Part shown: positions 1 through 53,063 of the stretch, piece by piece
Layout of the letters: every line of letters begins with the position of its first letter
Position numbering within the stretch: the first letter of the stretch is position 1
DNA from: a virus
Length of the DNA stretch: 64,000 nucleotides
Direction: 5' to 3' (one strand)
Virus record (IMG/VR): IMGVR_UViG_3300035698_006717
Coordinates: 32,001 to 96,000 of that record
Notes under the pieces: model-generated
What the model saw: the letters and a program-made list of their open reading frames with translations, nothing else
Databases searched by the model: none
Told to the model about the DNA's origin: nothing
Program-made: the position numbers and the translations under genes

Positions 1-6
1 GCAAAG

Positions 7-5836: not shown

Positions 5837-5889
5837 CATTTTGTTCATAAACCGTAATCTATTATATTATAGTAGTAGGAAAATTAAAC

Positions 5890-6643: not shown

Positions 6644-6663
6644 TAACAAAAGGAGAAACCACT

Positions 6664-8064: not shown

Positions 8065-8073
8065 GGATTCTAC

Positions 8074-25183: not shown

Positions 25184-26221
25184 ATGAGAAAGGTAGATAC
25201 GAAAGGGAGCGGTGAAAGATTGTGGAGTAAATTTGGGTTTGAATTTACTTTTGTACACAAGGCTCCATACTTTAATTGTAATGAAATTTCTTGTTCTAAA
25301 TGCCCAGAGCGGCACAACGATGAGATATGCGGTAGTGTTCCTACTTCTACTTGCTATTATGATCAAATAGCTCCTTTCAGAAGAAAACTTCACATAGATA
25401 AATTCTTTCACAGTACTAAAGTAAGTAATGATCAGTCTATTGAATTGAATACTCCACCTTTCAATTCCATAGATGATATCCATGAGTATTATTGCAAATT
25501 ATCAAGTTTTATACAGCGTATGCCTTTTGTAGCTAAGTCAGATACTAGGTATGGAGGTGGCGGTCATATCCATGTAGAAATACCCAAGAGGATGATACAT
25601 GATGAACTGTACAAGTTTAAGTTCTTTGTCAACTTGTTTTCTGATGTGAGTAATAGACCATATTTGAATTGGATGTTTAATGAATATGGTGATAACATAT
25701 CTGCTGAGCCGTATTTGCTTAATGATGATTTGTGTGATAGTTGGAGTGATGATGTTGGTATGCATCTGATGAAATGTAAAGGTTTTGACTTTTGGAAGCC
25801 TGTTGGCGGTTATTGTATTACCAATAGCTGTGATTTTGGAAGACTAGAAGATTGTGATTGGGGAACAAAAGGAACCGCTATCAGCTATTCACCTGCACAG
25901 TATGAAAAACCAGATACAATTGAGTTTAGGATATTTGACGCACAAGCTACTTGGGAAGAGCTACTGAGTCATGTATTATTTGTGAACAGATATCTACAGT
26001 ATATAGATCAAATAACCAGAAAAAATGTCAGGATACCAGTTACAGTTAGGACTAGAAAACAAGTACTTGGGAAATCAGTAGCCAATAAGTGTGTTGGTGA
26101 ATTCTATAAGTTCATCTCAGTTCTTGGGCTGCCAAGTTCCCTATACAGATACTGTGAGCAGAACTACTTGGATAGAAAAGCTATTGGGTGCTTGTTACCA
26201 GAATGGGTAGATGAATTATAA
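25184..26221 (+). CDS. putative amidoligase (COOH-NH2 ligase fold)
   Basis: EFTF, IELNTPP, GGGHIHV and TIEFRIF motifs. Confidence 0.7.
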   Translation: MRKVDTKGSGERLWSKFGFEFTFVHKAPYFNCNEISCSKCPERHNDEICGSVPTSTCYYDQIAPFRRKLHIDKFFHSTKVSNDQSIELNTPPFNSIDDIHEYYCKLSSFIQRMPFVAKSDTRYGGGGHIHVEIPKRMIHDELYKFKFFVNLFSDVSNRPYLNWMFNEYGDNISAEPYLLNDDLCDSWSDDVGMHLMKCKGFDFWKPVGGYCITNSCDFGRLEDCDWGTKGTAISYSPAQYEKPDTIEFRIFDAQATWEELLSHVLFVNRYLQYIDQITRKNVRIPVTVRTRKQVLGKSVANKCVGEFYKFISVLGLPSSLYRYCEQNYLDRKAIGCLLPEWVDEL

Positions 26222-26222
26222 T

Positions 26223-26258
26223 AAAATCATAACTCTTCAGCTAATTCAGATATATACT
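26223..26258 (+). promoter_or_regulatory. conserved phage promoter P4
   Basis: AAAATCA-TAACTC-TTCAG...17bp...TATACT. Confidence 0.8.
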
Positions 26259-28136
26259 ACTTCTATACCCTTAAAGAGAGGAGCCTACTATGGCTTGGAA
26301 TCCTAGTAAGAAGAAGTGGGAAAGAGATCCAGAACTTCCTGCCCGTAATACCCTTAAGTGGATAGGGCTTACGAGTGAAGAGAAATATGACGTTAATCTT
26401 CAGTTGGGTCATAGCTGGGGATTCCAGAACGTAATACGTGACGTAGAGAACGCCCCGAATGTTGCTATTGAGAAATACTGTGGAGCCTTTCGTATGGGAT
26501 TTGGGAAGAAGATAACTATTGATCCTGTTATCCGTAACGCTCTAAGAAAAGAGTTGATGAAGCGTTGCCGTGAAGGAATCTATATCTTTGCCTCTCGTAA
26601 TGAGAAAAGAAAGCTGAGACCTGTAGCTCGTATGCATGATGGAGCACCGACTGGTAAACTCGTTAAAGAATCTGCCTGATGGCAACAGGGGGGATTGGGT
26701 GCTTATTGAAGCATCGGAATCCCCCCGTATTATTTGAAGGAGGGTTAATGCTATTCTGGTATTTTTGCGCGGCTCGCAACTCTGAACCTTGTTATACTGA
26801 ATTAGATTCAGATGATGATCTAGATTTCAATTACAGAACTGGTGGTGATGGATTCTTTACTGTTGATATTTATGTGGGATATTGAAAGGATAGTGCTGTG
26901 AAGATTCAAGATCTAGAGAACGGAATGGTATCCATGACTAGGGTTAGCCCTATTGATGGGAAAGAGAATACCATGATTATTGTATTGGATATGATCAGCT
27001 TTATGGCCTCGCATGCTATATGGGTAGGAGGTACGGATGTGCAAGGTGCTTTCCCTACCCTATCTGCAGATGAGCGTGAATTCATACGTATTGGCATCAC
27101 ACCTGATCAGTCTAAGGAGATGTATGAAGATGAAGAAGTTTAAAGTTAATGGAGAATGCTTTTGCGAGGGAGGGACTTATGAGGCTCGTTCTCCTATGGA
27201 GGCTATGTACAAGCATCTCAAAGATGAGAAGAATATAAGTTTGGAGTGTTTCATGGAACCTATATTTAGTGGTAATGTAAAATTAACCACTATAATAGAT
27301 GGAATAACTGTTTGCGGCGGTTATGAGATAAGGGAGATGAAGTAATGAAAATAGTATCTCCCAAAACAAAAGTAGAATACATAGTAAGATGGCAGAAATT
27401 CGGATGGGTAGGATCTGCTATCAATGTGTATGTTAAGAAGAAGCTATTTAGTAAGATACCTTACAAGAAGCGTGTATGGCAGATATTTGGAGAAACTTTC
27501 TATGATATGGAAAGGATGTTCCCTGACAAGCTAACAGAACTATTCCATAAAGCCATGAATGAATATGAAGAGTATGTAGAGGCTTGGAATAATTCATTAA
27601 ACAAAGGAGATTGAATGCTGACACCAAAAGACTATCTGACCGCTCTTGATGTTCAAGATGCTTGTAATCTTTCAGGCGTTGTCCTCTCATTTATGGGAGC
27701 TTTGGACAAGATTAGAGAGGAAGTGAAGGATACAGATAAGATCAATAAGCATCCTATATGCGTTCTATATTCTGACAAGATTGCTCACCTAACAGGAACT
27801 CAATCTTATGCTGTTACTGCTGTAAGTGAAGCATATCAGGCCTGTCACGATAGGAGTCCTGAATGAAAGGATACAAAGTATTTGACTATGTACTACCTGT
27901 TTGGTCAATCTGTCCTCTAGTAAATGCTGATACATCTTCAACTACTGATGAGGATGATAAGAAGCTTGATAAGTTTCAGGAATGCCTTAATGTCAATATG
28001 GAAACTCTGGAGGCCAAATCTTGGACAATAGATTGGCCAGATTCTGTTGATTCTGCCAAGTACTTTTCTACATATAATGAAGTTGATGGCTATCTTGGAG
28101 CAGACGTTGTTGGTGTAAAGATCTACTTTTTCTATT

Positions 28137-28197
28137 AAAGTCATAACTCGTCAGCTCATTCAAAGGTATATTCTCTTTATACCCGAACCGATAGGAG
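28137..28197 (+). promoter_or_regulatory. conserved phage promoter P5 plus leader
   Basis: TAACTC-17bp-TATATT, then TATACCCGAACCGATAGGAG. Confidence 0.8.
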
Positions 28198-29328
28198 TCT
28201 GATATGACTGATGGAGAGAAGAAGATTGTTGAGGATTTCGTTCACCATGATATTAGAGATGAGCCTCATGTAATGACAACTATCGGAGATGTGTTTGATG
28301 ATGTTAATGTATTTATGAAGAATATTACTGATATTCATAGAGAAGAGAATCGGTTGCTGAAACTTTTGAGAAGCGGAGGGATAGGTGCTTGAATTTTCTG
28401 ATGGAATGAGTATTGATACTTCTGGTGATCTGAGAGTAATCTATAAGTCTGATGGATACTATGTTGTAGGTAATGGAATGATGTGCCCTGTGGATAGTCC
28501 TGAAGAAGGCAAAAGTCTGATGGAAGGGATGTCAAAAGATGGGTCAGCCACTAGGTAATGGAGGGTTTATACTTGATAAGCCTCCTGAGATTAACGCCTT
28601 CCGTTTGTTGGCGTTGAAGGGAAGACTAAAGCTTGAAGTGAATACTGGCCTGAAGTTTAGTTCTCGTGGCCCAGCAACTGGTAATATGGTAAGGAAGGAA
28701 ATTGGTTCAACTACTCGTAGTAAGGCAAAGCTGTTGGCTGAATTTGAGACATACTTGAGACAACTAGGTGTATTGAATGATGGGAAGGAGTAACCTATGA
28801 AGTTTATGCTCATACTGATATCTGTTCTATTATTTACCATTAATTCATATTCCGCTGAAATTGAAACATTTGTAACCTTGAGTAATAATCCTGATGCTGG
28901 TTGCGTGTTGATTACCTATTTGGATTATAGGCTATCTGAGGATGAGCCAAATACATATTCTTTGGTAAAGCTGTATGCTGAAGGGTGGAGGTTGGTTCAA
29001 GTAATCAGCATACCATCTTATAGAAGCAACTTATATGTTTACTACATGGAAAGGATCGGAAAGTGATTTATTATGCAATCCGTACAAAGTACTCTTCAGG
29101 AGTCAAAGGCTCCAGATGTATGGCTAGAGAGGCTGATGGTAGATCAGTATATATACCTTGGGGGTATGAAGTTAATTGTGACAAGAATCATCAGAATGCT
29201 GTGAGGAAACTTTGTGAGAAGTTAGGATTGTATGGTAAGCTTGCGTCAGGGTCTTTTAAGGGAGAGTTTGTTCACGTCTTTGTAGAAAGATATTACCAAT
29301 CTAAGTGTATTGAATTTGTTAACTAAAG

Positions 29329-29387
29329 AAAGTCATTACTCGTCAGGTGTTTCAGGTATATCTTACCCTTATACCCGAACCGAGGAG
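29329..29387 (+). promoter_or_regulatory. conserved phage promoter P6 plus leader
   Basis: TTACTC-17bp-TATCTT, then TATACCCGAACCGAGGAG. Confidence 0.8.
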
Positions 29388-30785
29388 AGCTGATTATGGA
29401 ACTGCCGAAGAATGTTTGCGCATCGCTGGCTGATAAGAAGCTAATAGTTGATGAGACTAAGAAACTTCTTGCTTATGCGCATGTTGCTGATGATAACCTT
29501 ACTTGGCGCTTCCTAGCGGAGATGTTGGAGAATTCCTGCCGAGCTAATGCTGTTATTCAACTAGATTATTCCGAAGATGGTAGAGAAGGAAATAAGACTT
29601 GGTATATTATAGAAGGGATGGGGATGGGTGAGAAGTTCCTCTATATTGACTGTTCTAAGGCTGATACTCCTAATTGGGAATATTCTTGGAGTGCTATCTA
29701 TGATTTGAGAGATGAGAACTGATTATGATCTCAAATTGGAAGTGGAATTTAGTAATGAGATGTATGGGTACGTGGATGGATTGGTATAGAATAGGGTATG
29801 GTGAATGGTTGGGGGGAGAGCTGGTTACTCTTCCCCCGTTTTTACATGAAAGTATTTATCATGGATGTTATGACTGCTCCCTTGGAAGAACTACAAGCGT
29901 ATGTTGACTTCTTACATGAGGAGTGGGTAGATGATCTATTCTATTCAATATATGATGTAGTTGCTGAAGAACGCAACCGTGTTGAATCTATCATAGAGTT
30001 GAGATCTAACCCCTGAAAGGATTTATCATGGAATTCAGAGGATTAACCAAACAGATGATCATCCCTATCGCTAGGCGGGAGGCTAATTTGTGTAACGCTT
30101 GGTGGATACTAAGAAACGCTCAGAAAGCTAATAATCCTGAAATTACTGCTCAAATGAAAGCTATGGCTAAAGACTTCATAGCTAGAAAGGACACGTGAAT
30201 GGCTCTGTCAAAGATGGATAAGAAGGTACTTGCTGATATGTATAATTCTCTAAGAGCAACTATAATGGCTTGCGCTTCAGAAAGTATTGCTTGTGTCAGG
30301 TAAGCTGATGCTTGTGATAGTGTTGTACATGATAACATTAAGATATGGATGGACAAAGATGACTAAAATTCAGATAGTCCCAAGAATAGGTGATATTGTT
30401 ATAGTCAATTACAAATATATGGTAGCTGATCAAGAGTCTAGTCAGTTTGTTGATTATATATTCAAGCACGTTGCTTTTGCTGGCGCTATTTCTTCATGGA
30501 GGTACTGCTCTACTAAGCCAAGCCTAAGTAGTGTTGTTGTTACATTTGGTACTGTTCAATTTAATTTCTCCGTCATCGAGCTTATTTGGACAGGACTCAA
30601 TATAGGATCTGAAAATCCTCATTATGTTGAAGTAAACTACCTATAATCTTCAAACTCCTAGGAAGCCCGTAGAGCTTAGACAAGATCTAACCCTATCCTA
30701 GTACGCCTAAACCCCTTTCAAGACCGTAGCGAGCCGCCTAGGAGCTTGTAATAGGCTTGTAGGTATAGAACCGAACCCGTAAAAG

Positions 30786-30846
30786 AAAGACATTACTATT
30801 CAGTCAGTTCAGATATACCTTATACCTATACCCGAACCGATAGGAG
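30786..30846 (+). promoter_or_regulatory. conserved phage promoter P7 plus leader
   Basis: TTACTA-17bp-TACCTT, then TATACCCGAACCGATAGGAG. Confidence 0.78.
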
Positions 30847-32926
30847 ATGAAAGATGGCTAGGATTTTTTGGGACGCCATAGTAGGTGAAGTATTCTTACC
30901 CTTGTGGTATCGGATATTTTGTAGAACAGTTTGTAAGATTTTTAGTCACAAACCTATGCGTAGCTTCCCTCCTGATTCAAATAGTAGTAATTGTATTGAT
31001 ACCTATTGTGAACGATGTGGCAAGTATTTGAACTAACCCCTAGGAGAAGATGAAATGAATAAGCAGGAAGTGAAAGATAAGCTGTTGTACTTTGTTCGTC
31101 AGTACGGAAGACGTATTTCCTTGCCAGGTATATATAGTGATGCCTCTGGTATAGGTTCTTTGAGGACTGAAGGTTGTTCTTGTTGTGCTACTTCCTTTAG
31201 GTATTCAAAACACGATTGTGATGAAAATGACGCTGCAGATGAAATAATTCAATCCTTTACCATGGATGAACAAATAGAAATTGTTAAGGAGAGCTTGAAA
31301 GCAACTATCAAAGAGTACGGCCTTACCCCTTCTGACTTGGAGTAATACCCTAATAACCCTTGAAAGGTGTTAAAATGATTAGATACACTATAAAGCAAGT
31401 AGTTATGTAGCTGTAACAAACCTTATTTATGAACAGCTACGGTGTACACCAGCTGATCTAACAAAAATTCAAAAGAAATTGCTTATAGCTTGTAATAACA
31501 TGCTAGAACTACTCAGAACAATAAAAAAGGAGGTAGAATCAAAATGAGCAAAAATGATAATGAAGAGTGGACAACAGAAAAAGCTCTCAAGGCTTTTGCT
31601 AGCCATAGGTTTAGAGGCATTAATGTAAAAACAAAAGAAAGTATGAGGAGCATTTTGGATAAACTCAATCTAACAAAAGATCAATTGAAGAAACTCAACC
31701 TACTAGAAAAATCAATTCTCAAATGGGAGCAAAATCAACTTATAGCTTCAGAGATGTCAACATTCACAGATCCAGAGAACTACCCACTCCTAAAGGGACA
31801 ATTCATTATAGAAGCAGATACTTGCCCTCTATGCGTAGAATACAATATTGGCTTAACAAATAATAAGATATGCTTAGAGTGCCCTATCTATCAGATGAAC
31901 AGTAACCATAGAGTGTGTAGAGGTACACCTTATATGACGGTAAGCAGATTCATGCTATCTCCAATTCCCAATTGGGAAGGTGTACATTCCGCTTCAAAAG
32001 CAGAGGTAGTCTTTCTTAATCGAGTTAAGAAAGAACTCATACTATCCTATGAATCACCTCCCCACGTAAGGAATAGCAAGAATACCCCTATTACGTTATA
32101 TAACAGTAATTGCGTACCAGTGTTGTCCTTAGATTGTGATGAAGAGAATGAATCTATGGTAGAAGTAAGAGATGTTAAGGATGGTATGATAATAGGTGAG
32201 TTAGAGGTTGATATGTGTTCTACTGAATACTTAGATTGCATAGACAATATACTACCCTCAGACTCAGAGTTTGCACAGATTAAGGATTGGGACAAAGCAA
32301 TTGAGAAGGAAAAGAAGCAATTATTGACTTTCTCTCTAATAGCCCCAAACCTTTGGACTGACACCGATACTGAAAGGTTCTCTATCTATGCTTTTGAGAA
32401 GACTAATGGTAAGACAGGAGTCAAGTATATGGCTTATAATATATTTGATAATGAAGAGCAGAAGGTGATAGGTAAGGACTCTAAGTTGTATACATTTACT
32501 GCTGCTGCTGAGTATGTTAATAACAAGAAGTGGTAGATGTACTACTATCTTGCTACTATGTGGTATACTAGGGAGTAGTGAACATCACTTAGGCATTTTG
32601 ACTACTGTGTGGTATGATACTATTATACTATTATGTGATTTATGATTGATTTAATACATGCTTATGCCACATCATGATCAGTCATGATCAAAGCATGCTT
32701 TCCACCGCATATTCACGCCATTCATGATATCTACCTGATATATTCAGACTAATCAAAATTTCAGCTTCATGATATCTACAGTGTTATTTGCAAATAATCA
32801 TTAAAATCACATCATTGAGAAAATTCATTGGTTAGTCATAGTCATTGAATAGCAAAAATCATTGAAGATGTACATTCAGTGATTAGCAAAAGTCAATGAC
32901 CTTGCCAACTCAAGGATTATCTTTCT

Positions 32927-32962
32927 AAAGTCATAATATATCAAGACTGAATAGTATACCTT
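32927..32962 (+). promoter_or_regulatory. conserved phage promoter P8 (divergent copy)
   Basis: AAAGTCA-TAATAT-17bp-TACCTT. Confidence 0.6.
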
Positions 32963-33007
32963 TCTAATAGGCGGGAATCCCCTAACCCCTACCCTAGGAG
33001 GAAGAAA

Positions 33008-33370
33008 ATGAACCATCTGTTGTTAGAAAAAGCTATTAAGGATTTGGCGGTAAAGCCTCTAGGTAAGTTCTCTGAAACTGAGGAAATGTTTAAGCGCTCC
33101 GGCTCTATAGGAGCTATTGCACTTGCACCCTACCTAAAAGGGGATAATGAATACTATGCTGACGAGGGAGACGAAGGCTTCTTGATGGAATGGGTTGAAA
33201 TGTTTGATAAGCTAGAACCTCTAGCGGGTGCGGTTGAATTTACGGATACTGTTTCTGGTTGTGACGTAAATGTTAAGTGTTTCTTTGGAACTATACTTGT
33301 TAAGTGGATAAATGAGGTAGGGGGAGTTTCCCTATCTGTTTTTGATATAGAAGCGTATATGGTTTTGTAG
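33008..33370 (+). CDS. acidic hypothetical protein, paralog of 34005-34361
   Basis: Shared LG.FS...MF, P.LKGD.EY, AG.V.F.DT.SGC.V.VKCF.G.ILV.W.N. Confidence 0.8.
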   Translation: MNHLLLEKAIKDLAVKPLGKFSETEEMFKRSGSIGAIALAPYLKGDNEYYADEGDEGFLMEWVEMFDKLEPLAGAVEFTDTVSGCDVNVKCFFGTILVKWINEVGGVSLSVFDIEAYMVL

Positions 33371-33376
33371 AAAAAG

Positions 33377-33438
33377 AAAGACATTACTCGTCAGCTAGTT
33401 CGGGTATACCTTACCTCTATACCCGTAACCGTAGGAGG
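33377..33438 (+). promoter_or_regulatory. conserved phage promoter P9 plus leader
   Basis: TTACTC-GTCAG...17bp...TACCTT, then TATACCCGTAACCGTAGGAGG. Confidence 0.8.
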
Positions 33439-33444
33439 AAGAAG

Positions 33445-33780
33445 ATGAAAGGTTCTACTGTTTATGAAAGCCTAGAAGATCTAGTGAAGGTACTAGGTGA
33501 TAGTAAAGATTGCAAATACTTGTTAGAAGATATAAAGGAACGGCTTGAAAAGGCTTTGGGAGAAAGAAAACCTTATAGCGTATCTTGGGTAAGTACTGAA
33601 ACTGATTATGCTACTGCTACCGCTATGAGCTTGTTAGTCGATAGCAGAGAGGGTGATACTTGGGTAAGCGAAGAAGGTGAAGAATTCTATAAGCTGATTA
33701 ATGCGGTTGATGAAACTCTAATCGTTATAGAGATGAATATTCCTGGTATGAGTGATTACCTTCTAGTGACGTATATTTAA
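33445..33780 (+). CDS. acidic hypothetical protein
   Basis: AGGAGG RBS; own promoter and a downstream hairpin (33794-33809). Confidence 0.75.
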   Translation: MKGSTVYESLEDLVKVLGDSKDCKYLLEDIKERLEKALGERKPYSVSWVSTETDYATATAMSLLVDSREGDTWVSEEGEEFYKLINAVDETLIVIEMNIPGMSDYLLVTYI

Positions 33781-33875
33781 AGGAGATCTGATCAGGGGGC
33801 TTGCCCCCTTTCCCATTAACCAGCAAAAGTCAATGACCTGAGGAAAATTCAATGGCACAAATTCAACCCAGAAAT

Positions 33876-33924
33876 TCAATGATCAAAACTCAATGATCAA
33901 AACTCAATCGTCAAAACTCAATGA
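33876..33924. repeat. 14-bp tandem repeat TCAATGATCAAAAC (3.5 copies)
   Basis: Copies at 33876, 33890, 33904 (variant) and 33918 (partial). Confidence 0.85.
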
Positions 33925-34004
33925 CGAGTATTATATAGACAGGGCTAATCAAGCTTGATTAGAGTATATTACCCTTATACCCTAACCCCTCTAGGAGGCA
34001 GAAG

Positions 34005-34361
34005 ATGAGACAGCACGCGTTGGCTAGTGAGATTAAGAAAGCGGCGGGAGGTAAAGCACTAGGTGAGTTCTCCCTAGCGAACCATATGTTTGATACTTCG
34101 GACGTAGTAGTAGCAAAGGCTTTGACCCCCTTCCTTAAGGGAGATGACGAGTATTTCGTTAGCGACGATGAGGAGGCTTGGAAAGATGATTACCTGATTA
34201 GCTTTATTGATATAATCCCTACGGCGGGAGAGGTACGGTTTGACGATACTGACTCTGGTTGCTCCGTACACGTTAAGTGCTTCTACGGACTAATCCTAGT
34301 ACGTTGGACTAATAGCGCAGGGGCTGATTCTATCTCTGCTTTTGATATACCTGAGTTATAG
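34005..34361 (+). CDS. acidic hypothetical protein, paralog of 33008-33370
   Basis: See paralog; AGGAGG RBS; hairpin GGCTCTCCT/AGGAGAGCC downstream. Confidence 0.8.
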   Translation: MRQHALASEIKKAAGGKALGEFSLANHMFDTSDVVVAKALTPFLKGDDEYFVSDDEEAWKDDYLISFIDIIPTAGEVRFDDTDSGCSVHVKCFYGLILVRWTNSAGADSISAFDIPEL

Positions 34362-34419
34362 AAAGGATCTGAATTTGGCTCTCCTACCCTAAGGAGAGCC
34401 TTCATTTTACATACCATAC

Positions 34420-34790
34420 GTCATTGGTTTGTACTGTATATGTAAGGACATATGGTAAGCCAATGAGTTGTTCTGTATATGTAATGACATATGTTAGAGC
34501 AGGTGATAGAGCATATGGTAAACCAATGACTATGTAATGTATGTAATAGCATATGGTAAGACAAGTGATAGGACATATGTAAAGAGCAAATGGTATGTGT
34601 GTGATACCAATGTACTGTACTGTAAATGTAAGGACATATGGTAAACCAATGACCTGCTATATGTGTGTGTAATAGCATATGGTAGGACAAATGTAAGTTC
34701 AAATGATATGCTATACATTGAGCTGTTATATGTAAATGTAATAGCAAATGTAAGGACATATGGTAAACCAATGACTATGTAATGGAATGT
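34420..34790. repeat. non-coding degenerate CATATG-core repeat array
   Basis: CATATG at 34449, 34488, 34512, 34550, 34574, 34635, 34676, 34757; unit CATATGGTAAACCAATGAC x3 plus one variant. Confidence 0.9.
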
Positions 34791-35516
34791 TAAACAAATT
34801 GTTAAACAAATGTTGTGAAATGTTAAACCAGTGAAATAAATGTAAAATGTTTACCAAGTTGATATCTACCATATACCATTGGCTAGTTGATTTTATTTGA
34901 AACTGATATCCTTGTTGCTGCTGTGATTAGCTTGATTTCACAATACACTGATTTCTTTTGGCTTTTCCCCGTTTTGCCATGATTTGGTAATTCAATGACT
35001 TTCTCGGATTTCCGAAAAAAAGCGGAAAAATCCGAATTTACCCTAAATCGGGCGAATTACCCGAAGTCGGTATAAATACCCGAAAGCGGGTAGAAGGTAC
35101 TATTTAAGGGGCTTAAATAGGGGCCGTTTAAGGGTTAAATACGTTTAGAGCCTAGGAAGGTTATTTAAGCGGATTAAGGGAAAACTAATTAACCGTATTA
35201 GGTAAATCTTCTAAGTCCTTTAAAATAGGGTAGTTACGGAGGGCGGGCTTTTAGGCGGATTCTATTTAAACGGTTAAAAAGATAGTTTAAGGTTTTTAAA
35301 CTAGATAGAGATTCTAGTTTAAATCGCTGAAGGCGAATTAAATAAAACGTCTTTTTTAGTACTATTAAGACGTTTTTTAAGGCGACTGCTCGCGAGCAAA
35401 TCTACTTAAGATATTAAGTTTTCCCCGATAGGGGCTTTAATCGAGTATATTTACTATAACGCCGCTACCCGCTACGGGCTACGGCGATAATCTATTACCC
35501 TTATAGGGGGTTTCTT

Positions 35517-35786
35517 ATGGTCTCGAATTCACTTACTCTAATAGCTTCGGTGACGAACGATCTACCTACTATATATAGGGTCGCTACGGTTAACCCCTTC
35601 GCCGCCCTACTACCTATCGCCGCCATAGTCGCCGCCGTATACCTTATAGCTTTAACGGTCTACGTGGCGAACGACTACGCCGTTAATACTAATTTACTAA
35701 GAATAGAAAGAGAGGAGCCTATAACCTTAAGAAAGAGCTTTATAGTCGAATACAATAACGGAACTAATAAAACCGTAAACGCTTAG
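35517..35786 (+). CDS. small membrane protein
   Basis: Hydrophobic segment AALLPIAAIVAAVYLIALTVYV; GGGGG RBS. Confidence 0.6.
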   Translation: MVSNSLTLIASVTNDLPTIYRVATVNPFAALLPIAAIVAAVYLIALTVYVANDYAVNTNLLRIEREEPITLRKSFIVEYNNGTNKTVNA

Positions 35787-35841
35787 TCTATTACTTCGAA
35801 TTCACCAAATTTTTAAACCGTAAAAGAAAAGAGTTACTACT

Positions 35842-36369
35842 ATGACTACGAAAAAGAATACTACCGCCGCTCCCGTTTCTAAGATCGTTCGCCACGCCGC
35901 CGCCGCTCCCGTAGAGACTCCCGCCGCCGCTACCGTAGAGAAGGTTTCGCTACTATCGGAAAAGGATTTTATTTCTTACGCCGAAAAGAGCGGGACTCCC
36001 GCCCTAAAATCTTTCGGAAACGTAGGGAGTCGAGTATACGCGAATCCTACCTTTTCGGGAACTACGGCCTTTATTATAGCGGCTCTTTCTACCGTCGATA
36101 CCAAACGTACTAGTTTTACGGTCGCCGATTTCGATTCGGGTATACGGTCGATGAAAACGAAGGAGAACTGGGAACGACTCGACGCTATTTTTAATACGTT
36201 CCGTTCCCGTTTCGCGAGTAACCGTAAAGGCGAAAAACCTTCCCTCGCGAGCAAGTATAAAAGTCCCGTAAAATCTTTACGGACTAGCGGAGTATATAAA
36301 GCGTTCGACGTTTCCGCTATCGGGACTCCCGAACTAAGAAAGTCCTTCGGATTCGCGGCGGGGAAATAG
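35842..36369 (+). CDS. basic Ala/Ser/Thr/Lys-rich protein, candidate first-expressed protein
   Basis: 175 aa ORF with no Gln or Cys; followed by a strong terminator. Confidence 0.75.
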   Translation: MTTKKNTTAAPVSKIVRHAAAAPVETPAAATVEKVSLLSEKDFISYAEKSGTPALKSFGNVGSRVYANPTFSGTTAFIIAALSTVDTKRTSFTVADFDSGIRSMKTKENWERLDAIFNTFRSRFASNRKGEKPSLASKYKSPVKSLRTSGVYKAFDVSAIGTPELRKSFGFAAGK

Positions 36370-36398
36370 ATCGTTCGCCACCAATAGGCGGATAATAT

Positions 36399-36426
36399 AG
36401 GGTAGTCTTCGGACTACCCTTTTTTT
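36399..36426 (+). terminator. rho-independent terminator
   Basis: AGGGTAGTC-TTCG-GACTACCCT followed by a T run. Confidence 0.92.
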
Positions 36427-36599
36427 ATACCTTCCCCGCTCCCTTCCTTCCTTCGTTCGTTCGCCAGACTCCCTCCCTTCCTATAATACCCTAAATCGCC
36501 GCTACGGGACTTTCGCCCTCATAGGTATAGCTAGGATAGGGTATATCTTCCCCGCCTTATACGGGCCTTCTACGGGCCTTATATAAGCTATTTAGAATA

Positions 36600-36706
36600 T
36601 ACCTTAAATCGGGTAGAATACCCGAATTTATATAGTCGGGCTTTTTACCCGAAGTCGGGTAGAATACCTTATCGGGTAAAATACCCGAAGTAGGGTAATA
36701 TACCCT
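36600..36706. repeat. cluster of TACCCGA/TCGGGTA palindromic repeats (second cluster at 35038-35095)
   Basis: TACCCGAA at 36619, 36646, 36682; TCGGGTA at 36609, 36655, 36672. Confidence 0.85.
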
Positions 36707-36989
36707 AATAATTTAAGCGCTTAAGGGGTAGGGCGTATGCGAACGATTTTATTTTCTAGGTAGCCCTACTTTGGCACCCAGCACACACCGTGAACATTTT
36801 TGCCAAGATTACCATGCTCAGAATATTTCAGGCAATACTACAAATGAAAAAGCCCACATACCGAAGCATGCAGGCTGAAAAATATTTACAGAAATTTTTT
36901 CTGCTGAATTTACAATATATACTTCTTGGAATCATCCTTATAGAAAATGGATATAGTTACATCTAGATAGAATTTCATCGCCCAACTCC

Positions 36990-37226
36990 TTAGAATGGAA
37001 GATCATCTTCCTTTGTTGGTGGTTCATATGGGATTTGTTCTCCAACGCCTCCAGCAGGCCATAGATTCAGATTGAGTCTCTTGCAATCTATATATGTCAG
37101 AGCTACACCTGGGTTTAGCTTGATTAGCATCTTACCAGACGGTTCAAGCCAACCCGCTCCTATGCGACATTGCCCGCCAGTATCAGGATCATAGGCTTTT
37201 AAGTAGTGTGTTGGTTTTGAAGGCAT
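36990..37226 (-). CDS. hypothetical protein with SSB-like acidic tail (EDDLPF)
   Basis: RIGAGW motif and DDLPF C-terminus. Confidence 0.6.
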   Translation of the reverse strand: MPSKPTHYLKAYDPDTGGQCRIGAGWLEPSGKMLIKLNPGVALTYIDCKRLNLNLWPAGGVGEQIPYEPPTKEDDLPF

Positions 37227-37677
37227 AGCTCATAGTCCTCTCACGAGATGTATAATGGATGAAATCATCTTGACAATTATATAGATTGCTCCTATAGTGA
37301 AGACGCCAACTGTTACAAACAGTGACAAACAAATTAGTAGTATCATGAGGAAGCGGCTTCCTTGATCTCTATGATACTGGCCTCATGTTCATGCACCCAC
37401 CAATCACCTTGAGACTCTATAACAGCTTCCTTGACTTCAAGAATGTTCTCGGCTTGGACTGCAAAGATCTTGAGATCATATCCGTCATGCCAAAGTACAG
37501 TAAAAGATTTCATATTAACCTCTCAATCATAATTGTGTGTATCATTATAATATGTATCAGCTTCAATAGACTCTTCCCTATCAAGGTTGAGTTGTTCAAC
37601 AGTTCCTTCAGCTTCTAAAGGATCAAAGTCGTCAGCATCCGAATCAAACTCGACTTCCCGAGGGTGTATTGACATAA

Positions 37678-38343
37678 TTAAGCTCCAATCCTTTTCTTAT
37701 CCATACCTATAGACTTGGTAGAAGTGTTCATACCTTTATTGTATTGGTCTTGGTTAAGGCCATACTGTCGGTACTTAGAAGATTTGTATTTGGTACCACA
37801 AGAGTTACAGACCATATCTACAATTGTTCCCTTATTGCAAGCTGTACATAGCTTATGGTCGGATGGGAAATTGGTAGCCATGTAACCCATCATATAAGAT
37901 CGGAGTGCGTCATTCTTCCAAGTGTTAATCTGCTTCTTGAAATACTTGTCTTCGTAGAATGGGCCATATGATTTTGTAAGTTCATCTCTAGCCTCTTTTT
38001 GGAGGCGCTTTTCATTAGTGTTGAACTGATGTTTTATATCATCAAGCAATTCATAGAACATCTTGTACTCATCAGGATCTGCATCTATAGAAATGTAATC
38101 TGGAAATCCTCTGAGAACATATACAGGTATCTTGCAAAATCCAGACAACAGAATAGCATACTTCTTAAGCCGATGTACTTTGAACCTCATATTCTTACGA
38201 GGCTCAAGAACCTCATCAGGATTGAGATTGTACTTCTCTATAAGTGTTTGGATTATCCTCTTGGCATTATCTGCCTCAGGGCCAATCATTTCACCCATAG
38301 CCTTTAGCTTGCGAATCCTACTTTGGATCTTTTCTAGTTCCAT
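37678..38343 (-). CDS. DUF2786-like domain protein
   Basis: N-terminal KIQSRIRKLKAMG...EADNA...LIEKYNL. Confidence 0.65.
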   Translation of the reverse strand: MELEKIQSRIRKLKAMGEMIGPEADNAKRIIQTLIEKYNLNPDEVLEPRKNMRFKVHRLKKYAILLSGFCKIPVYVLRGFPDYISIDADPDEYKMFYELLDDIKHQFNTNEKRLQKEARDELTKSYGPFYEDKYFKKQINTWKNDALRSYMMGYMATNFPSDHKLCTACNKGTIVDMVCNSCGTKYKSSKYRQYGLNQDQYNKGMNTSTKSIGMDKKRIGA

Positions 38344-38551
38344 TCTTTTCCTCCATATATTTGGATATGTCTATTTTAACAAATGCGTATATTGATAGAA
38401 CAAATATTGCTATCCAGCTACTAACTGGAACATGCTGCACAGTATAGAATTCTAGATACATAGAATAGCCTATGCTACCTAGTATGATTGGCATTAGAAT
38501 CATACTTGCCAATAGGATACCTCTAATCTTGTTAATCACAAAACACCTCAC
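38318..38551 (-). CDS. small membrane protein
   Basis: Two hydrophobic segments. Confidence 0.55.
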   Translation of the reverse strand: MRCFVINKIRGILLASMILMPIILGSIGYSMYLEFYTVQHVPVSSWIAIFVLSIYAFVKIDISKYMEEKNGTRKDPK

Positions 38552-39026
38552 AGGTTATAAGTTAGCCTCTCCCTTTCTTAAATAATATAAGAAAGAATAA
38601 CCCTTGTAGTAATGTTTTTATTAAGGAAGTATCAGATGTACTCTTTACGCTTCATAGTCTTGCGACATTTTCTGCAAGTGTCATAAAGTCTGTTATTAGC
38701 ATATACCTCTAAGTTGCGCCTATATCTTACTAGTTCTTCTTTAGAGAGCTTGCCAACTTCAACAGATTTTAAGAATTTGAATTTGCCCATTTGTTACAGT
38801 ACTCACTCACCCTTGTTTTTTGGGTTTGCCGTGTGTGATACCATTGCCACAGTGTGGGCAGAACTTCCACGACTTCTTGAGTTTCTTCATACAGCTGCAA
38901 TAGTGCGTCATGTTCTTTAGCATCCTTTCAAAGGCGTTGATCTTCGGCGAGTCCTTTGGGTCAAACGGTGAGCTAGGGCACCCATACAAGACAACTATGT
39001 CATCCATTTACAACTCCTATCCTTGT

Positions 39027-39101
39027 TTAATCAATCATGAGAATCATGCCGATTACCGCGCTCACCCACCCAGATATGAATCCCGTTATCCACTCACTCA
39101 T
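39027..39101 (-). CDS. 24-aa membrane micropeptide, paralog 1
   Basis: MSEWITGFISGWVSAVIGMILMID, behind a GAGGAG RBS. Confidence 0.6.
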   Translation of the reverse strand: MSEWITGFISGWVSAVIGMILMID

Positions 39102-39228
39102 CTCTCCTCCTCTGCCTGAGTTTTGGGTGAACCGCGGTAGAGGCTTGCCCCAATGTTGAGTTAATGCGTGCCGCCAATGCACTGGCTACGCAAAACCGTT
39201 TAGCTTGCCGCAGTTCACTAGGTTGTTT

Positions 39229-39360
39229 CATACAACGGTTAAGCAACGGGTGATAGTTTGCCGATACACTCATCGCAGAAGAACCGACCTGCCGTACTTT
39301 TATAACATTTCTTAGGCTCACCACAAGACTCGCAAATTTCATCCATTGCTGTGTTGTGTG
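39229..39360 (-). mobile_element. attC-like recombination site 1 (132 bp)
   Basis: Minus strand: CACACAAC-AC-AGCAATGGATGAAATTTGC ... GCAAACTATCACCCGTTGCT-TAACC-GTTGTATG; imperfect hairpin. Confidence 0.7.
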
Positions 39361-39523
39361 AAGTTTTTAGAAACTCCTCTTTTTCCTTAAAAATTGAGCG
39401 GAGTATTACTATTGCGCCCTGTTTGATAAAAGACCTCGCCTTGTACTCTACAAGGGCCACCTTTAATTCGTCAAAGCTCATTTTTACCACAATAAAGTCC
39501 TTTCTAAAAATTTGCGAAGCGAA

Positions 39524-39655
39524 CACACAACGTATTGCAAATGGGTGCTGGCCCACTAACATTCCCGTCCAGAACACTCCACGGCCTCCCCACGCATATC
39601 GCACGATTCTACATGACAACCATCGCACAGGCTGGCACCCTTTGCGTGTTGTGTG
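39524..39655 (-). mobile_element. attC-like recombination site 2 (132 bp)
   Basis: Minus strand: CACACAAC-AC-GCAAAGGGTGCCAGCC ... GGCCAGCACCC-A-TTTGC-AATAC-GTTGTGTG; one extrahelical base. Confidence 0.72.
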
Positions 39656-39807
39656 CTGTGGCTTGGTGGCTCCTCTTGTTCTGAGTTTGGCAAGTTGGCA
39701 ATAATCTTCGTGCGTATGAACTTGTAGACCTTACCCAGTTCTGAATGTGACAACTTAGATAAATCCTCGTGGATGTAGCCAAGAATACCATCACGATAAT
39801 CACTCAT
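39556..39807 (-). CDS. cassette-borne hypothetical protein that reads into attC-like site 2
   Basis: AGGAG RBS after GTTGTGTGCAAT. Confidence 0.55.
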   Translation of the reverse strand: MSDYRDGILGYIHEDLSKLSHSELGKVYKFIRTKIIANLPNSEQEEPPSHSTQHAKGASLCDGCHVESCDMRGEAVECSGREC

Positions 39808-39843
39808 AACCCAAACTCCTATAAAAGATTTTCACCAAACATT

Positions 39844-39928
39844 GCACACAACGTCTGTCGTGTTACGAAGTCGCCCTTGGCGATTTGGGCCGAACGACGT
39901 GAGCCGTAACATTTCTCTTTTGTTCCGC
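39844..39928 (-). mobile_element. degenerate attC-like site 3
   Basis: R'-like GTTGTGTGC; inner TGTTACG/CGTAACA and TCGCC/GGCGA stems; weak R''. Confidence 0.45.
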
Positions 39929-40945
39929 CTTATCAGGATAAGTCTTTTGGTTCTTCACAATAGATTTGGTTTGTACCCGTCTATTCTTTACTAAAATTCT
40001 AAAATACGGGCACTTTCCATTGATTGATAGATCCTTTTCATCATTCCCTTTTCTGAACTTAACTATTTCAAATTGCTTTGGATTGAACTTATGGAGAAAT
40101 GTTATTGGCACACCTATAAACCCTTTGTAGTCTGATGGTATATCCTTTGTCTTATTAACATTTATACCATCATAGTTGTCATACTTGGGATATTGAGCTT
40201 CATTTCCGTAGTATCTTTTGGTGAGTGGAATATCTTCGTGCCGTTTAAACGTATCTAAGTTAGTCAACCATAGACAATTGTTTGGAGAAACGATTCTGTT
40301 CCCAAAACTATCTATCCGAGCTTCTGTTCCATAAAGTTCATAGTGTTCGGGAACAATAAAACCAGAGACCCCTCTACCAATGTTTATTCCTAACCATGCT
40401 TTGTTTTCTTTTATAAGCTTGAAATCTTCCTTATAAGTTATTGCATTGATATTCCCAATTATCAAGAACTTTTTATGGTACTTGACCAATTGAGCTACGT
40501 ATTCTCTGAATAATGAAAATGGAGGGTTAGTAACTACAATGTCAGACTGTTTCAGTAGTTCAATGCTTTCTGAACAACGGAAGTCACCATCCCCAGCAAA
40601 GTGAATAATGTCGGTTGAGCTTGGTTTGCTTCTTTCACCCTCCGTACCAGTATATTCAAAGTAGAAACCATTTTCATCTTCCGCGGTGTTAAACAAATCT
40701 CTTACTTGTTCCCTGTAACAAGCCGCTATCAATTTCTTGAGACCTAATTCCTCAAAGTTTGAAGCAAAGTAACTATAAAAGTTACTAATTTGAGGGTCAT
40801 CGCAATTGCAAAAGACCACCTTGTCTTTAAAGTGGCTCTTATAATGCTTCAATTCACTTTCTATATCTGAAAGTTGCGTGTAGAACTCATCGCTTTTTGA
40901 TTTCTTAGCTTTTTGTAATAATCTGTTTGTTGCTTTCCTTGTCAT
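39863..40945 (-). CDS. adenine-specific DNA methyltransferase, EcoRI methylase family (orphan)
   Basis: KSDEFYT, VFCNCDDP, GDGDFR, IVVTNPPFSLFREY, IGNINAITYKE. Confidence 0.9.
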   Translation of the reverse strand: MTRKATNRLLQKAKKSKSDEFYTQLSDIESELKHYKSHFKDKVVFCNCDDPQISNFYSYFASNFEELGLKKLIAACYREQVRDLFNTAEDENGFYFEYTGTEGERSKPSSTDIIHFAGDGDFRCSESIELLKQSDIVVTNPPFSLFREYVAQLVKYHKKFLIIGNINAITYKEDFKLIKENKAWLGINIGRGVSGFIVPEHYELYGTEARIDSFGNRIVSPNNCLWLTNLDTFKRHEDIPLTKRYYGNEAQYPKYDNYDGINVNKTKDIPSDYKGFIGVPITFLHKFNPKQFEIVKFRKGNDEKDLSINGKCPYFRILVKNRRVQTKSIVKNQKTYPDKAEQKRNVTAHVVRPKSPRATS

Positions 40946-40988
40946 TTTTCTACCTGTCTCAATTCAAAGGGTTTTCTTATTCATTTGC

Positions 40989-41071
40989 CTCTAATGTGTA
41001 ATGCGTCTTGGGCAGTACGCTTCATCCTACAGCAAGTGCGGTAGCTTGCAGAAGCCTGAACTATGTTAAAT
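40989..41071 (-). mobile_element. degenerate attC-like site 4
   Basis: R'' ATTTAAC next to the upstream ORF stop (TTA ACA TAG); inner GCTTC/GAAGC and GCAAG/CTTGC stems; R'-like ATTAGAG. Confidence 0.5.
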
Positions 41072-41847
41072 GATCTGTAAGGCTCTCACAACAAACCATA
41101 CGAAGCCTCGATTCAAGAGCGGCAATTTTATCCTTTAGCTGTTGTACGTCTGTGGGCTGAGTACATTGTCCTTTAGGTGGCGGCGGACGCACACCTTTCG
41201 GACGAATGCCAACACCACCTTTTGATACTAAGCCTTCCGTAATATCGCTATGCATGCTTGCCACCTTTATAATAAATTTAAGAAGACCATTGCGTGTAAC
41301 TTGTGCTAGGGTGTCATTTGATTTATTTCACAACCAGCAGCAGGTGGGTTAATCACTCCCCCTTGTTATGTACCCACTTGGAAAACCATTCAATGGCCTC
41401 GCGTTCACGCATACCAATTGTGTTCTCATCAATAAACCGCCTTGACAGTTCAAGGATAGTCTTCTCAGCCTCACTGTCGGTTGGTGCTGGTGCTTTAGCA
41501 TCTTCTACGCACAGCGCACAAACCTGTATAGTCTCGTGCTTGACAATCCCGTGGGTAATACATCGTCTCATATTTATCGGCATCTCTCACTCCTCCTCTG
41601 TCTGAGTATTGGCCCTGAACTGCTTGTACCTTGTTTGAAATATCTCATAGAACTCTTGGTGCCCCGATTTAAACAAAGCGCCATAAAGCTCACTCAGTAG
41701 CTCTACAGCCTCGCTCTCGGTGGGTGCTGGGGGAGGGGTGGTTAGCCGTTCTTTGATAAAATCCCACGCATCAAGCTCAAAACCTATTGATCCGCAAGCG
41801 ATGATATTACCAATTATCTCCTGTGCTAAGTCGATGTTCATTTCCAT
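41061..41847 (-). other. small hypothetical ORFs 41061-41264, 41353-41583 and 41587-41847
   Basis: RBS-bearing ORFs; the last two share PAPT(D/E)SEA. Confidence 0.6.
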
Positions 41848-44279: not shown

Positions 44280-44834
44280 CTATTCGTGCCACATCAGTTC
44301 AGAGTTTTTCTCAAGCTCTATGTGATAAGGGCCAATCTTATCAAAGTCCTTCTGGCACCATTTTATTCCATCAAGTGCGCTCTCATATCGTACAAATTCT
44401 GAGCAATAGTATTTATGAGGCTTATCCTTACATATATTATAGAACTCTAGTAGTCCTGCAACATCATATTCAAATCCAACGCAGTCAACCTTCACTCTAT
44501 TATTAGACCGTTCTCTTAACTTCTGATGGTCATATTCTGGGAACCTTTTAACAGCAACTATACGTGGCTTGTTCCATTTACGTGTGGTATACTTATCAAA
44601 GAGGACAATCCTTCCAGATGGCCATTTTAGCTCTGCAATCATCCACTTGCCATTCACCTTGACTATGAACCCAGCATGAGTAGATATTGCTCTATTAAAC
44701 ATATTCTTCCAACCAGCAGTTGCGTGACGCTTAAGAGTTTCCCAGCTGATAGGAAATCTACTAGCCGTCAGAACTATATCCATTTCCCTCATATTATATG
44801 CTTCAGGTACAAACGCTCTTTTTTTCTTTCTCAT
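44280..44834 (-). CDS. permuted papain-like amidase (YaeF/YiiX-like)
   Basis: THAG near the N-terminus, YD, and YYCSEFV near the C-terminus. Confidence 0.75.
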   Translation of the reverse strand: MRKKKRAFVPEAYNMREMDIVLTASRFPISWETLKRHATAGWKNMFNRAISTHAGFIVKVNGKWMIAELKWPSGRIVLFDKYTTRKWNKPRIVAVKRFPEYDHQKLRERSNNRVKVDCVGFEYDVAGLLEFYNICKDKPHKYYCSEFVRYESALDGIKWCQKDFDKIGPYHIELEKNSELMWHE

Positions 44835-44835
44835 A

Positions 44836-45513
44836 TCACTCTCCTATGAAGTCTCTAGCATATACAGATTTGTGAGCATGCACACCGTCCTCAGTACCTA
44901 TATGCTGAACATATGAAGGCATAGTACAGTACATACTCCAATTTTGACTCCTAGCTTGCTTGCTCATGGTATACTCCCAACCACTTGGTTCGTGTAAAGT
45001 CTCTATGCAATCTCTACAGAATTCCCTAGTGATTAGACAACCAAATATCCCAATACTTAATTTCTTCAGTACACGGATAGTCCCTTCATTATTAAGATTG
45101 ATAGATTTAGATGCTTTGTGACCTTTATAATTGTATACTGATATTGCTCCAAGAAATTTATCCATAGCCTTAGATCTGTTGTACCTATCAATCAATACAT
45201 TATACCATTCGCTATTAAATATCATATCAGAATTTAGATTGATAACGCCTTCTAAGTTTTTATGGATACTAAACATCTGAGCAAGAGAGTTCCTAGTTCT
45301 GCTTGAGCAGTTAGACCTAACTTGCATATTCATCTCAGCAGGAGGTATCTTCAGCTTAGATAGAATTTCCATTAGCTTAGTCTTATCATCAGATCCGTCA
45401 TCAAATATGTACAAAGGTGGTAAGTTAGTAGATTTGTTTAGAGAGTCTATTGTCCTTTCTAATAGATCAAATCTATTACAAGTTATCAGTATTGCTGCAA
45501 AAGAAGGAGTCAT
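44836..45513 (-). CDS. glycosyltransferase, family 2-like
   Basis: ITCNRFDLL, FDDGS, NSDM, VQHIG. Confidence 0.8.
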   Translation of the reverse strand: MTPSFAAILITCNRFDLLERTIDSLNKSTNLPPLYIFDDGSDDKTKLMEILSKLKIPPAEMNMQVRSNCSSRTRNSLAQMFSIHKNLEGVINLNSDMIFNSEWYNVLIDRYNRSKAMDKFLGAISVYNYKGHKASKSINLNNEGTIRVLKKLSIGIFGCLITREFCRDCIETLHEPSGWEYTMSKQARSQNWSMYCTMPSYVQHIGTEDGVHAHKSVYARDFIGE

Positions 45514-51202: not shown

Positions 51203-51603
51203 GCTATTCTATGATGTCCTTCCCATATCTCACCACTAGCATATTTGGCAAATGGAACCAAAGGAGCCTCTAAAATAATAACAGGATTAGTAACTCCATT
51301 ATTCAGTATATCTCCATACAAAGCTCTGAATTTGTCAATCTTATCTTCAATCCACTTATGCTTCCTACCATACAGCTTCTGCATCTTATAGTATGGCCCA
51401 CTAAACCTATTCATTAGTAGAGCTACGTGAGGAGAGTATATCATTCTCAAAGGTCTTTTAACATGAGATGTTGTACAAGATAAATATGCTTGATATCTAT
51501 CGGGATTATATTGAGCACAAATATTCCTCAAGTCAGATGATTCTATAGTGCGCTCTGAAATAACTTCCAACTTAACTCTTTTGCAAAATCTATTGAAGTT
51601 CAT
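51145..51603 (-). CDS. ParB/Srx-like domain protein
   Basis: ILNNGV.NPV...EGHHRIA. Confidence 0.6.
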   Translation of the reverse strand: MNFNRFCKRVKLEVISERTIESSDLRNICAQYNPDRYQAYLSCTTSHVKRPLRMIYSPHVALLMNRFSGPYYKMQKLYGRKHKWIEDKIDKFRALYGDILNNGVTNPVIILEAPLVPFAKYASGEIWEGHHRIACCIALNIECPVQICKWSV

Positions 51604-53060: not shown

Positions 53061-53063
53061 AAC

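Follow-up and report, generated by a model that had tools for sequence, protein, structure and literature searches.

The genome of an uncultured, siphovirus-like salt-lake phage of 105 kb contains an island from which the dinucleotide CA and its complement TG have been almost entirely purged. The stretch analysed here (the window) comprises 64,000 nucleotides (nt), being bases 32001-96000 of the 105,409-base-pair (bp) IMG/VR record IMGVR_UViG_3300035698_006717, and positions given below are those of the window. As part of the phage backbone, the island forms a self-contained module of two genes that has been conserved, and comparison with its relatives indicates that the CA/TG ban is old, family-wide, selected and still enforced.

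35001-36770, no strand assigned: CA/TG-free, CpG- and TpA-rich island, with 22 CA/TG against ~205 expected (observed/expected 0.1)

Dinucleotide frequencies are expressed as observed/expected counts (o/e), and the genome was scanned in windows of 500 nt. Across the 105,409 bp the CA/TG o/e was 1.12 +/- 0.18, and the only values below 0.6 (0.05-0.16) came from three windows in the island. This bears out an earlier reading made from the letters alone (the sequence-only reading), in which a CA/TG-free two-gene unit had been picked out at this place. Within the island there were 13 CA (o/e 0.11) and 9 TG (0.09), together with 149 CG (1.75) and 213 TA (1.53), at a G+C content of only ~43%. Elsewhere in the genome, CpG had an o/e of 0.40 and CA/TG of 1.06-1.17, with TG in excess. 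The left edge is sharp, the final CA/TG outside the island being at 34996 and the next at 35328, while at the right edge there is a single CA/TG at 36738 and a dense run begins at 36772. CA was lost in every context and not only in WCA (where W is A or T), and the ban extended to non-coding DNA on both sides of the island's own genes and terminator (516 nt upstream, 400 nt downstream). The island sequence was single-copy in the assembly. Near-identical sequence was found in salt-lake metagenomes from at least eleven studies, and in four runs from four studies contigs spanned the island borders with zero differences. Because these border-crossing contigs were identical, the island is not an assembly chimera, and an artefact of this kind was rejected.

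Five further genes had lost CA on one strand only. Over 133 open reading frames (ORFs) the sense-strand CA o/e was 1.04 +/- 0.26, and the outliers were the two island genes and five others, at 0.15-0.40:

26290-26679, plus strand: gene driven by a cassette, with CA depleted on the sense strand alone (CA o/e 0.29, TG 1.25)
29396-29722, plus strand: gene driven by a cassette, with CA depleted on the sense strand alone (CA o/e 0.22, TG 1.33)
33008-33370, plus strand: gene for a small acidic protein, paralogue of 34005-34361 (CA o/e 0.22, TG 1.09)
33445-33780, plus strand: gene for a small acidic protein without His or Gln (CA o/e 0.15, TG 1.12)
34005-34361, plus strand: gene for a small acidic protein (CA o/e 0.40, CpG 1.07)

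In all five, TG was normal and CpG was raised, and each gene lies behind a copy or variant of a promoter/leader cassette (see below), the CA-poor zone starting just behind the cassette's upstream box. When the contexts of CA were examined, ACA (o/e 0.09; 2 against 22.9 expected) and TCA (0.13) were strongly depleted, and GCA was the least affected (0.57). The encoded proteins contain no more than two His or Gln residues each; a search with the 120-amino-acid (120-aa) early protein recovered no homologues apart from itself. Since these genes lose CA, keep TG and gain CpG, CA is the unit that is selected against, and for the same reason the rise in CpG is a by-product: the CpG and TpA excess of the island results from the clearing of CA/TG. 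Because the ban in the five genes affects one strand, RNA or displaced single-stranded DNA can be what the pressure acts on, which suggests that the agent can read CA on single strands, either in mRNA or in the displaced non-template DNA strand. The sequence-only reading spoke of motif-free blocks alternating with motif-saturated ones; that part needs correction, since the gene units other than the island are CA-poor on the sense strand alone.

The elements recognised within and beside the island were as follows:

35034-35095, no strand assigned: left cluster of palindromic TACCCGAAGTCGGGTA-type sites, of the form TACCCGAA(G/A)nCGGGTA (repeat analysis)
35517-35786, plus strand: gene for an 89-aa protein with one predicted (hydrophobic) membrane helix, 32% identical to a relative's 83-aa protein
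35842-36369, plus strand: gene for the 175-aa founding protein of an unannotated 20-cluster family, which has no Pfam, PHROG or Protein Data Bank (PDB) match
36399-36420, plus strand: strong predicted intrinsic terminator of the island transcription unit
36595-36708, no strand assigned: right cluster, with the same palindromic sites as the left (repeat analysis)
36711-36809, no strand assigned: border element of ~100 nt straddling the island's right edge, with three blocks that are identical, and identically spaced, in the relative
36851-36876, minus strand: predicted terminator ending a long minus-strand block, outside the island

The left palindrome cluster is accompanied by TTTAA-type inverted repeats. 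The border element consists of a 23-mer (ATTTAAGCGCTTAAGGGGTAGGG, 36711-36733) containing the palindrome TTAAGCGCTTAA, a 10-mer (CTTTRGCACC, 36769-36778) and a 17-mer (AACATTTTTGCCAAGAT, 36793-36809). It spans the exact point at which CA/TG returns, and its blocks are identical in the two phages although the neighbouring protein is only 23% identical between them; it could be a packaging, terminus or regulatory site. No integrase or transposase accompanies the island, and a search of the region against Rfam gave only sub-threshold chance matches.

DNA and protein searches for relatives gave no match in phage records, viral contigs or genome contigs, and tblastn with members of the 175-aa family gave none in 50,697 phage records. 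A related salt-lake phage is represented by two metagenome contigs (strains L002 and L003), retrieved by means of a 26-mer from a loose, CA/TG-free contig end. On the minus strand of L003 the blocks run in the order TCAAT iterons, two small genes, terminator, CA/TG-rich block, island and CA/TG-rich flank. The two small genes had a CA o/e of 0.47 and 0.59 with TG at ~0.93, and in the island, which is 1.36 kb long, CA/TG o/e was 0.05-0.28 and CpG 1.05-1.97. Both island genes are homologous to those described here, although the proteins are only 23% (E value 5e-10) and 32% (E value 1e-4) identical, and palindrome clusters lie on one side of the unit only. Thus the profile, which the sequence-only reading had proposed to look for in diverged relatives, is kept in L003 and L002 in the same order.

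A profile search extended the 175-aa family to 20 cluster representatives, mostly on short contigs. His, Gln, Cys, Trp and Met are precisely the five amino acids for which every codon contains CA or TG. These residues (excluding the initial Met) made up 1.6% of the 20-cluster family and 1.7% of the 175-aa protein, compared with 5.5-12% in 13 other phage proteins; the CA/TG status of 17 other family members was judged from this protein composition alone. The L002 and L003 islands differed at 45 positions, many of them third codon positions, and only 7 of these differences created CA/TG, against an expected 33% (P ~0.007); CG-to-CA/TG changes were among them. Both island ORFs are intact, and they are conserved across the 20-cluster family. 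Taken together, the relative's island, the composition of the family and the differences between L002 and L003 argue that the ban is old and still enforced, rather than the result of recent hypermutation or of a fresh foreign insert.

The function of the 175-aa protein was sought by structure as well. Using an AlphaFold2 (AF2) model with a predicted local distance difference test (pLDDT) score of 77, Foldseek against PDB and BFVD gave nothing at E <= 0.001, and in a VIA wide structure search the highest Z was 3.7, the few winged-helix rows dispersed through it (Z 2.4-3.1) being too weak for use; a protein atlas yielded nothing usable. The residues that are invariant in the family are Gly, Arg and Lys, with Tyr and Asn nearly so, a pattern that might, at a guess, suit nucleic-acid binding. 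In comparison with a lambda-type immunity region, in which palindromic operators cluster on either side of the gene for a DNA-binding repressor, palindromes flank the unit on both sides here and on one side in the relative, and no helix-turn-helix or other known fold was found.

To the left of the island, gene units alternate with arrays of short repeats:

26218-33447, plus strand: five copies of a 76-nt promoter/leader cassette (AAAGnCATnACTCGTCAG..TTCAGgTATA..TATACCCGAACCGATAGGAG..ATG), starting at 26218, 28132, 29324, 30781 and 33372
32598-32626, plus strand: sigma-70-like promoter, TTGACT-17-TATTAT (consensus match only)
32640-32900, no strand assigned: TCATGA/GCATGC block followed by TCATTGA/TCAATGA iterons (CA/TG o/e 1.3-1.8, CpG almost nil)
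33822-33925, plus strand: AAAnTCAATGA iterons in tandem (period of 14 nt at the 3' end), with similar iterons in the relative
34377-34400, plus strand: predicted intrinsic-terminator-like hairpin closing the early gene array
34409-35000, no strand assigned: non-coding array of ACATATGGTAAaCCAATGAC units (CATATG/CCAATGA), with CA o/e 1.40, TG 1.84 and CpG 0.13, the final copy abutting the island

The block layout that the sequence-only reading had listed for 32540-36780 was confirmed by composition and by motif counts, every block being found in its place. The alternation of motif-free and motif-saturated blocks is real in that CA/TG is enriched 1.2- to 2-fold in the arrays, where CpG is nearly absent; however, only the island is motif-free on both strands. 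The array at 34409-35000, with its adjoining sequence, holds 8 of the 44 genome copies of CATATG and 6 of the 7 of CCAATGA; 9 of the 12 copies of TCAATGA lie within 32812-34992, and 4 of the 38 of TCATGA within 32672-32767. The TCAATGA, CATATG and TCATGA arrays look like iteron-type or operator-like protein-binding sites between transcription units, not a code, and they are read as operator or activator iterons because they lie directly upstream of promoter cassettes. Two variants of the cassette occur in addition to the five copies, upstream of 33008 and of 34005. The cassette lacks a sigma-70 -35 element, but its upstream box, GTCATAACTCGTCAG, is conserved; a promoter dependent on a phage activator is one possibility. 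Two of the seven copies or variants, those at 28132 and 30781, precede genes that are not CA-poor. Strong AGGAGG ribosome-binding sites were present upstream of the early genes.

Recognised phage genes encode a tape-measure protein, a portal, a DnaB-like helicase, a primase, a DnaE-type polymerase, RecA and SbcCD-like proteins; no RNA polymerase was found in Pfam and PHROG scans. A plus-strand block of structural, replication and small early genes runs into the island region, and it is approached from the opposite side by a minus-strand block, in which there are a 5'-3' exonuclease, a sugar/glycosyltransferase cluster of ~17 kb, cassette-like genes and small ORFs. The two blocks converge at the island, where the cumulative GC skew also peaks and switches; the minus-strand terminator at 36851-36876 places the island at this meeting point.

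The closest parallel that we found is in Wifcevirus, a group of myoviruses. In the E. coli phage ECML-117 there is a single island at 6.5-8.5 kb of the record, with CA/TG o/e of 0.27-0.58 and CpG of ~2, encoding two proteins in which His, Gln, Cys, Trp and Met together make up 1-2%. In records that include the repeat (WFC, WFH, Ro157lw and SP13) this stretch is present twice, from ~1.9-2.3 kb of the record start, and in phage Mansfield the corresponding stretch is annotated as a direct terminal repeat; the terminal repeat of WFC and WFH is ~3.7 kb long (PMC6563267). Thus, the Wifcevirus phages and the salt-lake phage each have one island of 1.5-2 kb per genome, depleted of CA/TG on both strands and ~2-fold enriched in CpG, whose proteins are nearly without the five amino acids, and both have a DnaE-type polymerase. 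The island genes are small in both, with promoters and terminators of their own, except that no promoter was recognised in the salt-lake island; the CA/TG-free sigma-70 promoters of the myoviruses (TTTACT-17-TATAAT) were not found there. The purge is stronger in the salt-lake phage (o/e 0.1 versus 0.27-0.58), and only this phage has the class of genes that are CA-poor on the sense strand alone. The terminal-repeat position is documented in Wifcevirus, whereas the salt-lake phage is known from contigs alone. We found no published description of CA/TG-free islands in the literature, and the Wifcevirus passages of PMC11990801 make no mention of one.

Our tentative preference is for a reading in which the island is a target-free early module, kept by selection and probably located in a terminal repeat. 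The analysis demonstrates the purge with its sharp edges, its conservation, signs that selection continues, the strand asymmetry and the parallel in Wifcevirus; we infer the terminal position, the early timing and the nature of the agent. In the infected cell the island DNA would be exposed at an early stage or by itself. Its most likely place is within a terminal repeat or at the margin of one, by analogy with Wifcevirus, where the position of the island in the repeat fits an early or entry role. Lacking CA, it would escape a CA-reading activity of host or phage, which might be a nuclease, a deaminase or a base-modifying enzyme, and the five cassette-driven early genes would be under the same pressure on one strand only. 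The difference between the two classes could be accounted for by single-strand exposure. Both strands of a terminal repeat would become single-stranded during end processing by resection and annealing, for which the phage's 5'-3' exonuclease, RecA and SbcCD-like proteins can be cited, and this would give a two-strand ban; heavy transcription of the early genes would give a one-strand ban. Activities of broadly the right kind are known, namely MazF, which acts at ACA (PMC9102682), and T4 endonuclease IV, which acts on single-stranded DNA with a preference for dTdCdA (PMC2095790); neither was recognised among the ~70 larger proteins of this phage.

Contig depth over 33.0-37.2 kb was 2-3x that of the flanks in all four runs, depth being recorded per contig and the runs having been chosen because they contained the stretch; this is a weak hint of a double copy, and strains sharing the island would raise the depth too. 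Several observations weigh against this preferred reading. Contigs cross both island borders, which fits a collapsed repeat or, equally, an internal position. Scans of ~70 larger phage proteins against Pfam and PHROG identified no CA-specific agent. A sigma-70-like search that included the Wifcevirus-type CA/TG-free promoters recognised no promoter inside the island, so that early expression of its genes is an assumption. The island genes are unrelated to those of Wifcevirus (hhalign gave a probability of 0.2% against the one ECML-117 protein compared, of 208 aa), and because they are not homologous the parallel is one of pattern only. Finally, T5 is the textbook model of first-entering phage DNA, and its first-step-transfer region (NC_005859) showed no purge, with CA/TG o/e of 0.80-1.08. 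CpG o/e was mostly 1.1-1.5 in positions 1-10219 of T5 (0.97-1.52 in 1-kb windows), compared with 0.5-0.9 in most of the next 20 kb (one window at 1.00), and this rise may be a faint echo of the same pressure.

Evasion purely at the level of RNA is one alternative. According to this explanation, which we consider unlikely overall, an endoribonuclease cutting (A/U)CA, such as a MazF-like mRNA interferase, would be the agent, and the island would be transcribed on both strands. The sense-only loss of CA tracks the transcript, with ACA and TCA worst affected, and there is a precedent: MazF cuts ACA, and mRNAs lacking ACA escape it (PMC9102682, PMC5408214). The five genes resemble sequences spared by MazF or T4 endonuclease IV in their strand-specific loss of ACA and TCA, which goes as far as amino-acid avoidance, and resemble ACA-less mRNAs in that the motif is absent from the sense strand only and inside the bounds of the transcript. 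The position of the island between converging transcription blocks would also suit transcription of both strands. However, the minus-strand block has its own terminator outside the island, the ban spans 516 nt upstream and 400 nt downstream of the island genes and terminator, and all contexts of CA are lost there rather than WCA alone. In addition, cleavage of an antisense RNA would be harmless, leaving the TG ban in the sense RNA unexplained, and no sequence-specific RNase was recognised among the ~70 larger phage proteins compared with Pfam and PHROGs. Taken literally, the positional code of the sequence-only reading would be a programme for DNA entry: the CA/TG-rich arrays would stop injection or act as decoys for a host factor that binds CA/TG, and the island would be the shielded first-step segment. 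This we rate somewhat lower again. The layout is like that of T5, in that the island genes are transcribed toward a putative end at 36770 with a large untranslated region of repeats and palindromes further inward, and the relative retains the arrays and the block order. The left repeat of T5 carries the pre-early genes, annotated on its minus strand, and at its inner end the injection-stop signal, for which a DnaA-box cluster has been proposed as the mark; the T5 literature also contains the proposal that DNA entering first is free of sites for a nuclease (bioRxiv 10.1101/866236). By contrast, the salt-lake phage has no A1, A2 or dmp homologues (no gene of the region had a PHROG or Pfam match), and DnaA-box matches in 32.5-36.8 kb were at chance level without a cluster. 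The arrays lie directly upstream of promoter cassettes, as operators or activator sites would, and a double-strand decoy or shield does not predict sense-only avoidance of CA. The overall interpretation in the sequence-only reading is partly supported: the alternation and its conservation stand, whereas a positional code that stages entry is not supported.

Avoidance of the phage's own mark is a further explanation, to which we would give little weight. Here the phage would modify a base in a CA/TG context, and the island would have to stay unmodified, for example so that a sequence-specific protein could read it. The palindromic sites inside the island and the conserved border element at its right edge are what such a protein might read, and the phage has many methyltransferase and glycosyltransferase genes; nevertheless, the transferase cluster looks like one for sugar/glycan biosynthesis, the sole recognised DNA-modification enzyme is an EcoRI-type methylase in the cassette-like region, and the sense-only loss of CA is left unexplained. 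It is very improbable, in our estimation, that the island is a foreign or mobile two-gene cassette carrying the composition of another replicon. In composition it stands apart from the remaining genome, it is equipped with flanking repeats and a terminator of its own, its family is mostly on short contigs, and the neighbouring genes differ between the two phages, but it occupies the same position next to the same border element in the diverged relative and is associated with no integrase or transposase. Moreover, the whole family shares the ban and polymorphism still avoids CA/TG, so the rule is maintained whatever the origin. The explanation to which we give the least credence of all is a mutational footprint, left either by deamination in a CpA context, as in repeat-induced point mutation (RIP), or by T:G repair that is biased within a repeat undergoing recombination. 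Transitions at CA/TG yield TpA and CpG, and each of these is raised, L002 and L003 show CG-to-CA/TG differences, and the phage has a weak match to the uracil-DNA glycosylase superfamily. Against this, a single process cannot give CG as well as TA, the borders of the island are sharp, the two ORFs are undamaged and are conserved over the 20-cluster family, and the five sense-only genes retain TG.

Other candidates were tried and rejected. The region does not have the features of RIP-like decay, as CpG is enriched too, its conserved ORFs are undamaged and the assembly has one copy of it. Selection for CpG itself does not fit the genes in which CA alone is lost and TG is normal. A priming-free zone fails as a general explanation: CTG and CAG are nearly absent from the island (3 and 1 copies), but CTA and TAG occur 57 and 44 times, and DnaG primases also use CTA/TAG (PMC2978363). 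The island resembles cases of restriction-site avoidance in that a short motif is under-represented under selection, but the banned unit is a dinucleotide that occurs in only 2 of the 16 four-base palindromes (CATG and TGCA), the other 14 being possible without CA/TG, and ordinary restriction avoidance was rejected. Like a vertebrate CpG island it is a CpG-rich patch in a CpG-poor genome; unlike one, it has a G+C content of ~43% and owes its CpG richness to the loss of CA. The MazF and T4 endonuclease IV precedents likewise differ from the island, where all CA is affected and the ban is two-stranded and includes non-coding DNA.

Some further observations concern the rest of the window. In one run (X1), a single contig with a depth of 2.1 joins 33021 to 38348 with two extra letters, omitting the early genes and the island; it could represent a variant genome or a chimera. 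At 39000-41400, contig depth in the same runs was 25-50x as against ~5x for the phage, with many variant letters and a G+C content raised to 0.45-0.47, and this stretch is common to other, more abundant organisms. It contains, at 39863-40945 on the minus strand, a gene for an EcoRI-family adenine methyltransferase (Pfam E value 1e-128). A run of sugar/glycan genes of ~16-17 kb, unusual in a phage, occupies 44280-60450 on the minus strand and encodes GT2, GT9 and GT1/4 glycosyltransferases, a cytidylyltransferase, a 2-hydroxyacid dehydrogenase, an HpcH-type aldolase, FkbM and other methyltransferases, and a sulfotransferase. Glycosylation might be directed at the product of a repetitive, Ser-rich gene at the contig ends.

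Phages shed restriction sites of 4-6 bp. The ban described here is unlike such losses, because it concerns a dinucleotide, is confined to less than 2 kb, removes five amino acids from the encoded proteins and recurs in unrelated phages. The salt-lake island is the most extreme example so far, and what is new in it is the conserved layout of the relative, the 20-cluster family poor in five residues, the five sense-only genes and the border element. Compared with the E. coli cases, the second class of genes, with its one-strand ban, narrows the agent to a reader of single strands. It is possible, although we regard it as doubtful, that unrelated tailed phages (the Wifcevirus myoviruses and the salt-lake phage) independently ban one dinucleotide from the terminal-repeat DNA that is first exposed and from the sense strand of the first mRNAs. 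If so, there would be a widespread, undescribed activity recognising CA on single-stranded or entering nucleic acid, which would be either a host defence or a phage weapon against host DNA or RNA that requires self-immunity of the phage, and to this system would belong the CA/TG-rich iteron arrays together with the 175-aa family. Such a ban implies that an agent specific for two bases exerts selection when infection starts. As Wifcevirus phages grow on laboratory E. coli, direct testing is possible, and the identity of this agent could reveal a new mechanism of defence or take-over.

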